DNA of 64,000 bases, from assembly GCF_041886205.1 (NCBI RefSeq), contig NZ_CP169029.1; one strand, given 5' to 3'. The translations under genes and the position numbers were made by a program. The notes beneath the pieces were generated by a model that was given only the letters and a program-made list of their open reading frames with translations, was not told the DNA's origin and did not search any database. The stretch is from Escherichia coli (lineage in GTDB: Bacteria; Pseudomonadota; Gammaproteobacteria; Enterobacterales; Enterobacteriaceae). Position 1 is the first letter of the stretch; every line of letters starts with the position of its first letter. Of this stretch, positions 8,758 to 57,794 are shown one piece after another.

Positions 8758-8994
8758 TTATTGTGTCTGATCCTGGGTAACATATGGCCACCTTATTTTA
8801 TTTGGTTATTTTATGTCGCCATTAAATATCTCATTATAGAAGTAAACTATCAAAAAACGCTCATTATTAAAATGTAACTTATTAGCAATTGAATTTTTGC
8901 ACTTTAAATACAATCTCTTTTTATTTATAACTTTTTAGGTTGGGAGAAATCAGGATGGCAGAATCAGGAAATACACTGTTTCTGCCATCTGAAT

Positions 8995-13442: not shown

Positions 13443-14408
13443 ATGATTAGCGGCGTGCTGTACGCCCTGTTAGCAGGGTTGATGTGGGGGCTTATTTTTG
13501 TCGGGCCGTTGATCGTGCCGGAATACCCGGCGATGTTGCAGTCGATGGGGCGTTATCTGGCGTTAGGGTTAATTGCGCTACCCATTGCCTGGCTGGGACG
13601 CGTGCGTCTGCGTCAGTTGGCGCGTCGCGACTGGCTTACCGCCTTGATGCTCACTATGATGGGCAACCTCATCTATTACTTCTGCCTTGCCAGTGCCATT
13701 CAACGTACTGGCGCGCCTGTTTCTACGATGATTATTGGCACCCTGCCGGTGGTCATTCCTGTCTTTGCCAATCTGCTTTATAGCCAGCGCGACGGCAAAC
13801 TCGCGTGGGGAAAACTCGCCCCGGCACTGATTTGTATTGGCATCGGCCTGGCGTGTGTGAATATTGCTGAGTTAAACCACGGACTCCCCGATTTTGACTG
13901 GGCACGTTATACCTCTGGCATCGTGCTAGCGTTAGTTTCCGTGGTCTGCTGGGCATGGTATGCCCTGCGCAACGCCCGCTGGCTGCGGGAAAATCCCGAC
14001 AAACATCCGATGATGTGGGCGACGGCGCAGGCGCTGGTCACGCTGCCGGTTTCTCTCATCGGCTATCTCGTCGCCTGTTACTGGCTGAATATACAAACGC
14101 CGGACTTCTCCTTACCTTTTGGCCCCCGTCCGCTGGTGTTTATTAGTCTGATGGTTGCGATAGCCGTGCTTTGCTCATGGGTTGGCGCACTCTGCTGGAA
14201 CGTCGCCAGCCAGCGATTACCGACAGTGATTCTCGGGCCGCTGATCGTTTTCGAAACACTGGCAGGTTTGCTGTACACCTTTTTGATACGCCAGCAAATG
14301 CCGCCGCTGATGACGCTGAGCGGTATCGCGCTGTTAGTGGTTGGCGTGGTCATTGCAGTCAGAGCAAAACCGGAAAAGCCTTTAACTGAATCTGTCTCAG
14401 AAAGTTGA
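13443..14408 (+). CDS. ytfF: EamA/DMT-family inner membrane transporter YtfF
   Basis: ORF 13434..14408, multi-TM hydrophobic protein; start choice uncertain by 3 codons. Confidence 0.8.
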   Translation: MISGVLYALLAGLMWGLIFVGPLIVPEYPAMLQSMGRYLALGLIALPIAWLGRVRLRQLARRDWLTALMLTMMGNLIYYFCLASAIQRTGAPVSTMIIGTLPVVIPVFANLLYSQRDGKLAWGKLAPALICIGIGLACVNIAELNHGLPDFDWARYTSGIVLALVSVVCWAWYALRNARWLRENPDKHPMMWATAQALVTLPVSLIGYLVACYWLNIQTPDFSLPFGPRPLVFISLMVAIAVLCSWVGALCWNVASQRLPTVILGPLIVFETLAGLLYTFLIRQQMPPLMTLSGIALLVVGVVIAVRAKPEKPLTESVSES

Positions 14409-14466
14409 CATACTGGCAGTGAGTTAAATAAGCCTCTGCTACGTAAGGGTTATAGCATTTGCCTTA

Positions 14467-14489
14467 AAGATGCATTTAAAATACATCTT
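14467..14489 (+). promoter_or_regulatory. NsrR operator (11-1-11 inverted repeat) in ytfE promoter
   Basis: AAGATGCATTTAAAATACATCTT, near-perfect palindrome about 27 bp upstream of ytfE start; matches known NsrR site. Confidence 0.8.
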
Positions 14490-14515
14490 ATCTTATTAAG
14501 AATGAGGTATCAGCT

Positions 14516-15178
14516 ATGGCTTATCGCGACCAACCTTTAGGTGAACTGGCGCTCTCTATCCCTCGCGCTTCGGCTCTGTTTCGTAAATATGATATGGATT
14601 ACTGCTGCGGCGGTAAGCAAACGCTGGCGCGTGCGGCGGCACGTAAAGAACTGGATGTTGAGGTCATTGAAGCTGAGCTGGCAAAGCTTGCTGAACAACC
14701 GATTGAGAAAGACTGGCGTAGCGCCCCGCTGGCAGAAATCATCGACCATATCATCGTGCGCTACCACGATCGTCACCGCGAGCAACTGCCGGAGCTGATC
14801 CTGCAAGCGACTAAAGTCGAGCGCGTTCACGCCGACAAACCGAGCGTGCCAAAAGGGCTGACAAAATACCTGACCATGCTGCATGAAGAGCTTTCCAGCC
14901 ACATGATGAAAGAAGAGCAGATCCTCTTCCCGATGATCAAACAAGGCATGGGCAGCCAGGCAATGGGGCCAATCAGCGTAATGGAAAGCGAGCACGATGA
15001 AGCGGGCGAACTGCTGGAAGTGATCAAACACACTACCAATAACGTCACACCGCCGCCAGAAGCCTGCACCACCTGGAAAGCGATGTATAACGGCATTAAT
15101 GAACTGATTGATGACCTGATGGATCACATCAGTCTGGAAAACAATGTACTGTTCCCACGCGCGCTGGCGGGTGAGTAA
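14516..15178 (+). CDS. ytfE: iron-sulfur cluster repair di-iron protein YtfE (RIC)
   Basis: 220-aa [36 protein letters not shown]. Confidence 0.93.
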
Positions 15179-41058: not shown

Positions 41059-43500
41059 TCACTCTGCCACTTTTTTCTTCGCCGCACGCTTCGCTTTGGT
41101 CGCTGCAGCTATTTTCTGCGTTTTCGCCGATGGCTTTTTCGCTTTTCTCGCGTCTTTCTTCGCCGCTTTCGGCTTCGTTTTTTTCTCACCGCGGAAGGCG
41201 CTGTCTGGCTCAAAGTTTACCTTTTTACCGACCTGACGACGCTTGCCGCCTTTTTTACCTGCATCGCCTTTTTTCGCTTTCTCGCGCGCCGTTTTACCGA
41301 CGTTGCGCGGTGCGCGTTCGCTGGAGATCAGGCTAAAGTCGATTTTGCGCTCGTCCATATTAACCGCTTCGACGCGAACTTCCACGCGATCGCCCAGGCG
41401 ATAAGTCTGGCCGCTGGATTCCCCCATCAGGCGTTGCCCCACCTGGTCAAAGCGATAGTAGTCATTGTCCAGCGAAGAGACATGGACCAGACCATCAATG
41501 AACAAGTCGTCCAGACGGACGAAGAAGCCAAAGCCAGTGACGCTGGAAATTACGCCTTTAAAGACGTTACCTACCTGGTCGAGCATGAAGTCACACTTCA
41601 GCCAGTCAGCCACATCGCGCGTTGCTTCGTCGGCACGACGTTCCGCCATCGAACAGTGCTGACCCAGTTGCAGCATCTCTTCCATCGAATAATGGTAGCC
41701 GCCGGTTTCAGTGGTGTTGCCCTGATGCCCCTGCTCTTTCGCCAGCAGATATTTAATGGCGCGGTGCAGCGTCAGGTCTGGATAACGACGAATCGGCGAA
41801 GTAAAGTGCGCATAGGACTGCAATGCCAGGCCAAAGTGACCACGGTTTTCTGGATCGTAAATCGCCTGTTTCATCGAGCGCAGCAGCATGGTTTGCAGCA
41901 TTTCTGCATCAGGACGATCGGCAACCGACTCCAGCAGCTCCGCGTAGTCACGCGGTTCCGGCTTGTTACCGCCCGGCAGTTCCAGCCCCAGCTCCGCCAG
42001 CACTGAACGGAAAGAGGTAATCGCTTCGGTGCTCGGCTTGTCGTGAATACGGAACAGTGCCGGTTCTTTCGCTTTCTCAACGAAACGCGCCGCCGAGATA
42101 TTCGCCAGAATCATGCACTCTTCAATTAATTTGTGCGCGTCGTTACGCTGAGTCTGTTCGATACGTTCAATACGGCGTTCAGCGTTGAAAATGAACTTCG
42201 CTTCTTCGCTCTCAAATGAGATCCCACCGCGTTCTTCACGGGCTTTATCCAGCACTTTATAGAGGTTATGCAACTCTTCGAGATGCTTAACCAGCGGGGC
42301 GTACTGCTCGCGCAGATCCTGATCGCCCTGCAGAATATGCCAGACTTTGGTGTAGGTCAGACGCGCGTGAGAGCTCATCACCGCTTCGTAGAATTTGTAG
42401 CCCGTCAGGCGGCCTTTCGACGAAACCGTCATCTCGCACACCATACACAGGCGGTCTACCTGCGGGTTGAGCGAACACAGGCCGTTAGAGAGCACTTCCG
42501 GCAGCATCGGGATAACCTGCGAAGGGAAGTACACCGACGTGCCACGGTTACGCGCTTCTCTGTCCAGCGGCGTTGACGGACGCACATAGTAGCTGACGTC
42601 GGCAATCGCGACCCATAAACGCCAGCCGCCGCCGCGTTTTTTCTCGCAGTAAACTGCATCGTCAAAGTCACGGGCGTCTTCGCCATCAATGGTGACCAGC
42701 GGTAAATAGCGCAGATCAACACGGCCCGCTTTTGCTTCTTCCGGCACTTCTTCTTTCAGCCCGGCAACCTGTTGCTCAACAGCCTGCGGCCAGATGTACG
42801 GAATTTCATGGGTACGCAGAGCGATATCAACCGCCATGCCGGTGCCCATATTGTCGCCCAGCACTTCGACGATTTTACCCACCGCTTTGGTGCGGCGAGT
42901 CGGACGCTGAGTCAGTTCGACTACGACCACAAAGCCCATCCGCGCGCCCATGATCTGATCGGGCGGGATTAAGATATCGAAGCTCAGACGGCTGTCGTCA
43001 GGAACCACAAAGCCGACGCCCGCTTCGGTAAAGTAGCGACCAACAATCTGGCTGGTTTTTGGCACCAGTACGCGGACAATACGCGCTTCACGACGACCTT
43101 TACGGTCAGCACCCAGCGGCTGAGCCAGCACCTGATCGCCATGAATGCAGGTTTTCATCTGCTCGCTGGAGAGATACAAATCATCTTTACGCCCTTCAAC
43201 CCGTAGAAAGCCGTAGCCATCACGGTGGCCAATAACGGTACCTTTCACCAGGTCGAGGCGTTCCGGCAGCGCATAGCACTGACGACGAGTGAAGACCAGT
43301 TGACCATCGCGCTCCATCGCGCGCAGGCGGCGACGCAGGCCTTCAAGCTGCTCTTCGCCTTCAATGTGCAGTTCTACCGCCAGCTCATCACGGCTGGCCG
43401 GTTTTTCACGTTTGGTTAAATGTTCGAGGATAAATTCCCGACTAGGGATGGGATTCGCGTATTTTTCAGCTTCGCGTTCCTGGAAAGGATCTTGTGACAT
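41059..43500 (-). CDS. rnr: ribonuclease R
   Basis: ORF 41059..43542, start at [28 protein letters not shown] (813 aa); lysine-rich C-terminal tail. Confidence 0.93.
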
Positions 43501-43538: not shown

Positions 43539-43964
43539 TCACTCCACCAGCAATAATTTATAAAGCGGTTGATTCTCTTCAACCAAATCGGCAAGCGTGT
43601 AGTTATCCAGTTCCGTAAGAAAACTTTGCACGGCCTTAGAAAGTGCCTGTTTCAACCTACAGGCAGGTGTAATGTGGCAAAACTCACTGCTGCAATTCAC
43701 CAGCGATAAGGGCTCCAGCTCGCGCACCACATCACCAATACGTATCGCACTCGCCGGTTTACCCAGGCGAATGCCGCCATTTTTTCCACGAACAGCAGTC
43801 ACGTAGCCGGCACGACTAAGTTGATTGATTATTTTGACCATATGATTACGGGAGACGCCGTAGACGTCAGTCACTTCAGAAATACTGGTCATCCGCCCTT
43901 CTGGCAATGACGCCATGTAGATCAGCGCACGTAATCCGTAATCAGTGAAACTCGTTAACTGCAC
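43539..43964 (-). CDS. nsrR: nitric-oxide-sensing Rrf2-family repressor NsrR
   Basis: 141-aa [58 protein letters not shown]. Confidence 0.93.
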
Positions 43965-44168
43965 ATCAACCTCAAAAGGGAAATCGGGAAAAAATACATT
44001 TATATTGATGATAAACCAGCCACAAGCTGTGTCGCTAATTTATTTCAGTTCGGGGAAGGAAAAAAGCGAGGATTTAACACTGTGTCGGATAGCGTAATGG
44101 CTTACCCGACACAGCAATGTATCACACTGTTCGCCCGGCAGGCAAAATATCTGCCAGGCGTACCAGAA

Positions 44169-49951: not shown

Positions 49952-50902
49952 TCAGCCTGCGATAGCACCAACAACCTGTAATACTTCGTCACGCGCCTGT
50001 TCTGGTTTTTCACTGTCAAGCCAGTGAACCCCTTCCCAACCACGCAGCCAGGTTATCTGCCGCTTCGCCAACTGTCTCGTGGCGCAAATACCTCGATAAA
50101 CCATTTCATCGTATGAGATTTCGCCTTCAAGGTAAGACCACATCTGGCGATAACCCACGCAACGAATGGAAGGCAAGTCCGTATGCAAATCTCCTCGGGC
50201 AAAAAGCGCCCGGACTTCTGCTTCAAAACCTGAAGCCAACATCTGATGAAAACGCTGCTCAATGCGTTGATGGAGCAGTTCACGGCTCGCCGGGGCGATG
50301 GCGAACTGATGCACCTGATACGGTAGAGCGTCTCCTGACGTTTGCGTCAGTTCCGTTAAAGTTTTACCCGAAATGAAAAAAACTTCCAGTGCCCGGGAAA
50401 GCCTTTGTGGATCATTTGGATGAATCCTTGCTGCCGCAACCGGATCGATCTCCTGAAGTTGACGATGCAATGACTCCCAACCTTGCTCTGCCGCCTGTTG
50501 CTCAATTCTGGCCCGTACTTCCGGGTCTGCCGACGGTAGCGGCGACAACCCTTCCAGCAATGCCTTGAAATACAACATCGTACCGCCCACTAACAGTGGG
50601 ATCCGCCCCGCCGCGGTGATATCGGCCATTTCCGCCAGCGCATCGCGGCGAAAATCAGCAGCCGAGTAAGCCTGCGACGGATCGCGAATATCCAGCAATC
50701 GGTGCGGCGCGGCGAGTAACTCTTCAGCGTTCGGCTTCGCCGTCCCGATATCCATCCCTTTGTAAATAAGGGCAGAATCAACGCTTATCAACTCTACTGG
50801 TAAAATTTTACGCAGCTCAATGGCTAACGCCGTTTTACCGGAGGCCGTCGGCCCCATCAAAAAAATCGCCTTAGGCAGGCTCGCCTTACTGATATCACTC
50901 AT
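49952..50902 (-). CDS. miaA: tRNA dimethylallyltransferase MiaA
   Basis: 316-aa [35 protein letters not shown]. Confidence 0.95.

Positions 50903-57495: not shown

Positions 57496-57571
<76 letters not shown>

Positions 57572-57606: not shown

Positions 57607-57682
<76 letters not shown>

Positions 57683-57718: not shown

Positions 57719-57794
<76 letters not shown>

Follow-up and report, generated by a model that had tools for sequence, protein, structure and literature searches.

In the 64,000-nt stretch of Escherichia coli chromosomal DNA that we analysed (hereafter the window), the 23-mer AAGATGCATTTAAAATACATCTT was read directly from the sequence at 14467-14489, between ytfF, which encodes an EamA transporter and ends at 14408, and ytfE (Table 1). 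The start of ytfE matches the RefSeq annotation, in which the product is named 'iron-sulfur cluster repair protein YtfE'. The encoded protein carries the Pfam domains ScdA_N (8.6e-21) and Hemerythrin (3.8e-28), which supports the identity that the original prediction had given to the gene downstream of the operator. The whole segment 13400-15300, annotated as ytfF, ytfE and cycA, is 100% identical to many complete E. coli genomes, that of the type strain ATCC 11775 among them.

The cognate regulator gene, nsrR, lies 29,050 nt beyond the end of the 23-mer and is followed by rnr (Table 1). The NsrR of the window has three cysteines, Cys91, Cys96 and Cys102, and its closest solved relatives are structures of Streptomyces coelicolor NsrR (5N07/7B0C, E = 1.5e-19). 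Thus, the regulator that had been placed at 43539-43964, about 29 kb away, indeed belongs to the Rrf2 family, and its best relative of solved structure is an NsrR. The relation of nsrR to rnr had been described as downstream, with a gap of about 38 bp. The gap stands, since exactly 38 nt separate the nsrR TGA from the rnr ATG, but the order does not: nsrR is upstream of rnr in transcription, because both genes are on the minus strand with nsrR first, and it is downstream only in window coordinates.

Table 1. Coordinates of the features at the ytfE and nsrR loci, as positions in the window.
Feature	Coordinates	Strand	Evidence
Candidate NarL/NarP 7-2-7 element TGCTACG-TA-AGGGTTA, centred at about -45 from the inferred start	14437..14452	+	alignment, consensus match
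NsrR operator, 11-1-11 inverted repeat AAGATGCATTT-A-AAATACATCTT	14467..14489	.	repeat finder, pattern scan, PWM
Probable ytfE -10 hexamer TAAAAT, at the palindrome centre	14477..14482	+	5-of-6 match to TATAAT
Probable ytfE transcription start, some 7-8 nt past the -10 hexamer	14490	+	flank conservation, ATG spacing
Shine-Dalgarno GAGGT of ytfE	14504..14508	+	GAGGTA block 8-12 nt before ATG, conserved in 42 aligned upstream regions
ytfE, di-iron hemerythrin-like protein, 220 aa	14516..15178	+	ORF, Pfam, RefSeq annotation
rnr (RNase R), 813 aa from ATG 43500	41059..43500	-	ORF; domains RNB, S1, CSD2, HTH_12
nsrR, Rrf2-family repressor, 141 aa, GTG start	43539..43964	-	ORF, Pfam Rrf2 1.1e-37

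By using a repeat finder, we resolved the 23-mer into two arms of 11 nt each (14467-14477 on the left and 14479-14489 on the right), which are 91% complementary and separated by a 1-nt spacer at 14478, with C14473 against A14483 as the single mismatch. Both the sequence and the repeat finder therefore confirm the 11-1-11 inverted repeat with one mismatch that had been predicted. The site lies 58 nt past the stop codon of ytfF, and 26 nt separate its end from the ytfE ATG at 14516, close to the distance of about 27 bp given beforehand. When we searched for 11-1-11 inverted repeats with at most one mismatch, five were found in the window against 0.8 expected, the other four being G+C-rich. A search with the idealised palindrome AAGATGCATTTNAAATGCATCTT, allowing up to three mismatches, gave one match in the 64 kb and none in 100 dinucleotide-preserving shuffles. 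Because five repeats share the same geometry, what distinguishes the operator is its NsrR-motif sequence, and not symmetry alone. Elsewhere in the window, a 23-nt imperfect inverted repeat, CCCCGACCTTGGCAAGGTCGTGC, is present in three copies (57526-57548, 57637-57659 and 57749-57771) at a spacing of about 111 nt; these copies are probably part of a tandem tRNA gene cluster, which by position would be glyVXY.

To score the site, we derived a symmetric weight matrix of 23 bp from the 11-1-11 NsrR sites published for E. coli CFT073 (Table 4, PMC5320621), of which 25 out of 27 were used after removal of ytfE and one duplicate. With this ytfE-omitted matrix the operator reached 30.45 of 31.29 bits, above every training site (the best of them, hcp, scored 26.5), a result that keeps some circularity, as the published sites were picked with a matrix to which ytfE had contributed and the omission of ytfE removes most of this effect, not all. 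The second-ranked 23-mer of the window scored 12.5 bits (window mean -23.8, SD 9.1), which leaves the ytfE operator 18 bits above anything else in the 64 kb. When half-sites were scored separately with an 11-bp matrix (maximum 15.54 bits), the arms took the first two places in the window, with 15.47 and 14.77 bits. The mismatch between C14473 and A14483 costs 0.7 bit in the 23-bp matrix, and it is this cheap because it falls at the degenerate y/r position of the motif gATGyAT-N5-ATrCATc. Such a scan had been proposed together with the original prediction, which was to be given up on a poor score or on a better site elsewhere; neither was found, and no other 23-mer of the window comes near the site in score. 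Likewise, the view that the window holds both a regulator and one of its best operators is upheld by the near-maximal score and by the cognate nsrR about 29 kb away.

No second full NsrR operator was detected in the 64-kb window with the 23-bp matrix. The suggestion to look for additional half-sites near nsrR and at the hfq-proximal promoters did not bear fruit, as the half-site scan returned nothing convincing there. First, a half-site-like 11-mer, AAAATACATTT (13.4 bits; TAAATGTATTT on the opposite strand, 11.8 bits), lies at 43991-44002, 27 nt upstream of the nsrR GTG. It overlaps an AT-rich, -10-like stretch, and nsrR is absent from the 49 promoter-associated ChIP-seq sites of CFT073 (Table 2, PMC5320621); on these two grounds we did not accept it as a finding. 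Second, the sole half-site match near hfq (50568-50578, 12.1 bits) falls within miaA at a distance of about 700 nt from hfq, and was rejected because chance alone should yield about 2.7 half-sites of 12 bits or more per window. A further pair of matches was noticed at 8870-8916, in the AT-rich cysQ-ytfI intergenic region, where a 14.2-bit half-site on the minus strand (AAGTTACATTT) accompanies a weak 12.4-bit 23-mer upstream of ytfI; this region is not among the published NsrR targets.

We also considered whether the site is mainly the target of Fur, FNR, IscR or a similar regulator. This would account for the de-repression of ytfE in fnr and fur mutants that is stated in a review. IscR, being a paralogue of NsrR, lends this idea some weight. 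In 14400-14520, the best matches are 10/19 for the Fur box, 6/10 for FNR, 6/10 for CRP, 14/25 for IscR type 1 and 6/9 for IscR type 2, against 22/22 for NsrR, and sites for Fur, FNR, CRP and IscR were rejected on these poor matches. Review literature moreover reports no recognised Fur or FNR site at ytfE and proposes that the effect of these regulators is indirect. We thus regard a site devoted mainly to another regulator as very improbable.

Comparison with the published ytfE operator, a further check that had been put forward, likewise favoured an NsrR operator, since the site is identical to that of K-12 and one base away from that of CFT073. In E. coli K-12 MG1655, the same 23-mer occurs with the same spacing to the ATG and in the same ytfF-ytfE order as in the window; over the 131 nt around it there are only three differences (TA in the window vs CG in K-12 at 14411-14412, and A vs T at 14457). 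The CFT073 site shares its locus, arms and spacing with that of the window and carries a G in place of A14483, which makes it a perfect palindrome. In CFT073, the ytfE site is the top-ranked 11-1-11 NsrR site genome-wide (PatSer score, ln P = -25.13; Table 4, PMC5320621) and lies under a ChIP-seq peak with a 9.65-fold enrichment and a summit 50 nt before the start codon; ytfE was up 69.6-fold in a CFT073 strain lacking three NO-detoxification genes and given nitrate, and it is listed as an earlier ChIP-chip target in K-12 (PMC5320621). The motif gATGyAT-N5-ATrCATc had been predicted upstream of dnrN/ytfE and found to be conserved in enterobacteria, with a personal communication cited for a role of the repeat in the repression of ytfE by NsrR (Rodionov et al. 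2005). Reviews also describe E. coli ytfE as repressed by NsrR, and a PytfE reporter strain that responds to an NO donor has been published.

In a scan for AAGATGYATTTNAAATRCATCTT over about 100,000 species, each represented by a single genome, we found at least 120 loci, distributed over Enterobacterales, Acinetobacter, Legionella, Methylobacter, Vibrio, Bacillaceae and others. The first open reading frame on each side of the site was classified at each locus, and some loci count in two gene classes. Among the 120 matches listed, 112 adjoin ytfE, a flavohaemoglobin, a truncated globin, nsrR or tehB, and 8 adjoin none of these five main classes. A flavohaemoglobin gene (Globin, FAD and NAD domains) is beside the site at 43 of the 120 loci, ytfE at 40, an Rrf2/NsrR gene, usually divergent, at 32, a truncated globin gene at 22 and tehB at 6; norB is near the site at one locus among the matches listed, and a hemerythrin gene at one further locus. 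As these foreign loci were selected by the pattern, the conservation of the operator among them is by construction, and the independent information lies in the neighbouring genes, the spacing, the central base and the flanks. The identities of the neighbouring genes are what one expects for the operator of an NO-sensing repressor. Moreover, in 42 aligned upstream regions, the position of the operator upstream of ytfE is fixed across genera of Enterobacterales whose flanks have diverged.

Several of these loci deserve mention on their own account. In Morganella, Photorhabdus and Proteus (five loci), the exact 23-mer stands 4-17 nt before a gene for a DUF1971-TehB methyltransferase; the standing of E. 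coli tehA as an NsrR target is disputed (PMC5320621). In Legionella and Methylobacter, at eight loci and others like them, the operator lies between a divergent nsrR and a gene for a group-I truncated globin (Bac_globin), which makes a compact sensor-plus-globin module using the enterobacterial consensus sequence. The hmp (flavohaemoglobin) operators share with that of ytfE the half-site AAGATGCATTT and the 11-1-11 layout; in many genomes they precede the start codon by 14-28 nt. The E. coli hmp site itself, TTGATGTATCTCAAATGCATCTT, is far less symmetrical than the ytfE site (20.5 vs 30.45 bits).

The distribution of the sequence also argues against its being an RNA hairpin that terminates or stabilises the ytfF transcript. 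The repeat does follow the ytfF stop codon at a distance of 58 nt and is itself followed by a T-rich stretch (ATCTTATT). However, the same sequence precedes hmp, globin genes and tehB, and many loci have no preceding co-directional gene; in addition, the stem would be almost all A-U. The terminator scan returned no terminator-like site in 14300-14600, and in both the minimum free energy and the centroid fold of 14455-14510 the arms are not paired with each other. An intrinsic (Rho-independent) terminator was rejected on the empty scan and the unpaired arms, and we give the hairpin reading next to no credence. As to a chance inverted repeat without any regulatory role, such as the AT-rich intergenic DNA of this region and the excess of repeats with this geometry (five vs 0.8 expected) might suggest, it can hardly be entertained given the absence of the NsrR palindrome from all 100 shuffles, the near-maximal matrix score, the spacing upstream of ytfE kept across genera with diverged flanks and the published ChIP-seq peak (PMC5320621), and it is effectively refuted by the conservation and ChIP data.

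Taken as an NsrR operator, the palindrome has a plausible place within the ytfE promoter. First, in a relaxed scan of the stretch between ytfF and ytfE, no hexamer but TAAAAT, at the centre of the palindrome, agreed with TATAAT at 5 of 6 positions, A2 and T6 included. Second, the central base (in the sense of the gene) is A in all 40 ytfE loci, which yields TAAAAT, and is A, T, C or G at the hmp, globin and nsrR loci. Third, the AT at 14490-14491, which lies outside the searched pattern, is kept in nearly all 42 aligned ytfE upstream regions. Fourth, the operator-to-ATG spacing of 26 nt was found in 28 of the 40 ytfE loci by crude ORF calls, and the remaining loci align with the same spacing. 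A -10 element within the palindrome is supported by this invariant central A, the conserved AT and the fixed spacing to the ATG. It is thus plausible that the operator overlaps the ytfE -10 element and, with a start at about 14490, extends from about -23 to -1. The overlap with a likely -10 region, as announced in the original prediction, consequently has a candidate in TAAAAT, the overlap being deduced from the sequence.

A consensus scan found no canonical sigma-70 promoter in 14300-14600, and the best -35 partner of TAAAAT has 2 of 6 matches only. A perfect TTGACA at 14405-14410 was rejected as the -35 element of ytfE, as it overlaps the ytfF stop and has no -10 element at 16-18 nt. A full-text literature search found no paper with a mapped ytfE transcription start. 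The genetics of the ytfE site is said to go back to a study by Bodenmiller and Spiro in 2006, which reportedly described an inverted repeat overlapping the -10 element at ytfE.

A second conserved block was seen upstream of the operator, at 14437-14452 (Table 1). In 40 of the 42 ytfE upstream regions it keeps its place relative to the operator (-28 to -30), while the surrounding sequence varies. Against the consensus TACYYMT-NN-AKRRGTA, a pair of inverted heptamers expected near -44.5, the block matches 10/14 positions in E. coli and 11-13/14 in most other genera, compared with a median of 9 for the best of 45 in random sequence; the E. coli score alone is not significant, because other 10-of-14 NarL/NarP matches occur near the block. 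The block resembles a NarL/NarP site and may be considered a predicted one. If it is such a site, the layout at ytfE would be comparable to that of the E. coli yeaR-yoaG promoter, which combines NarL activation with NsrR repression. At yeaR-yoaG, NarL reportedly binds near -43.5 and the NsrR site is said to overlap the core promoter, according to the work of Lin, Bledsoe and Stewart in 2007. Unlike at yeaR-yoaG, NarL/NarP binding at ytfE is a prediction only, with the E. coli block at 10/14. The resemblance re-observes an earlier prediction, in which NarQ/NarP control of dnrN (ytfE) was proposed for enterobacteria (Rodionov et al. 2005).

Further upstream, at about 45 nt from the NarL-like block, many ytfE loci outside Escherichia (six loci of Kluyvera, Citrobacter and Enterobacter, and similar ones) have TGTGA-N6-TCACA, a CRP-type site close to the consensus. 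Beyond it, several of these loci carry a divergent ORF of about 470-565 aa, a methyl-accepting chemotaxis gene where it was classified. E. coli is without this CRP-type site because ytfF occupies that place.

The 23-mer has the 11-1-11 layout, lies at the promoter of an NO-stress gene, has a cognate NsrR in the same genome and is conserved across species, as is characteristic of NsrR operators. Together with the published data, these observations leave us highly confident that 14467-14489 is the operator by which NsrR keeps the ytfE promoter off without NO. Repression would proceed as follows. NsrR would form a homodimer with an iron-sulfur cluster on Cys91, Cys96 and Cys102, and this dimer would sit on the 23-bp palindrome with one winged-helix domain per 11-bp arm. 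As the probable -10 hexamer (TAAAAT, 14477-14482) falls within the palindrome, which extends to the probable start at about 14490, the bound dimer would block open-complex formation by RNA polymerase, provided that the -10 element and the start have the positions proposed here. NO would then nitrosylate the NsrR cluster, DNA binding would be lost, and ytfE would be transcribed.

This scheme has a counterpart in S. coelicolor NsrR, which is known from published work to bind its operator as a homodimer and to lose this binding upon exposure to NO; a review likewise states that intact [4Fe-4S] NsrR represses and that nitrosylation relieves repression. The complex of S. coelicolor NsrR with its hmpA1 operator (PDB 7B0C) is that of a homologue (E = 1.5e-19) with the three cysteines conserved in both proteins. 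It resembles the repression proposed for ytfE in its palindromic operator, its homodimer and the abolition of binding by NO, and differs in that the protein is about 39% identical to E. coli NsrR and its operator is of the AACACGAATATCATCTACCAATT type. No structure of E. coli NsrR was found among the solved relatives.

The ytfE operator is already known and is without discovery value: it was predicted in 2005 and has been confirmed by ChIP in two E. coli strains. With the regulator and its best operator in one window, it is about as clean a positive control for motif scans as possible. For users of PytfE as an NO biosensor, as well as for comparison of strains, the frequencies of its operator alleles may be of use. 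Among 5,426 complete E. coli genomes, the A14483 allele of the window and K-12, an imperfect palindrome, is found in 4,167 (77%), and the G allele of CFT073, a perfect palindrome, in 959 (18%); the remaining genomes have other changes in the operator, for example AAGGTG in EPEC O127:H6. PytfE users may also note the invariant central A, which fits a -10 element embedded in the palindrome. For comparison of strains and species, it matters that the exact 23-mer reaches across phyla.

In one of the 5,426 genomes, that of E. coli 09A19CPO004B, the region is broken at about 14501, about 12 nt after the operator, so that the ytfE promoter and operator are parted from ytfE there; past the break, a nikR fragment, a rhsB fragment and blaCTX-M-15 follow. 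In addition, three E. coli matches to the ytfF-ytfE region, each with the A-allele operator, come from records annotated as plasmid and not as chromosome.

Finally, two speculative possibilities may be raised, which even jointly we consider a long shot. The weaker of them is that the half-site-like 11-mer at 43991-44002 might give a weak autoregulation of nsrR. The other is that the A/G polymorphism at 14483 might alter the occupancy of the operator by NsrR and thereby set lineage-specific NO thresholds for ytfE. Since YtfE itself makes NO from nitrite, according to a review, such an effect, if true, could move the set-point for the NsrR regulon as a whole.
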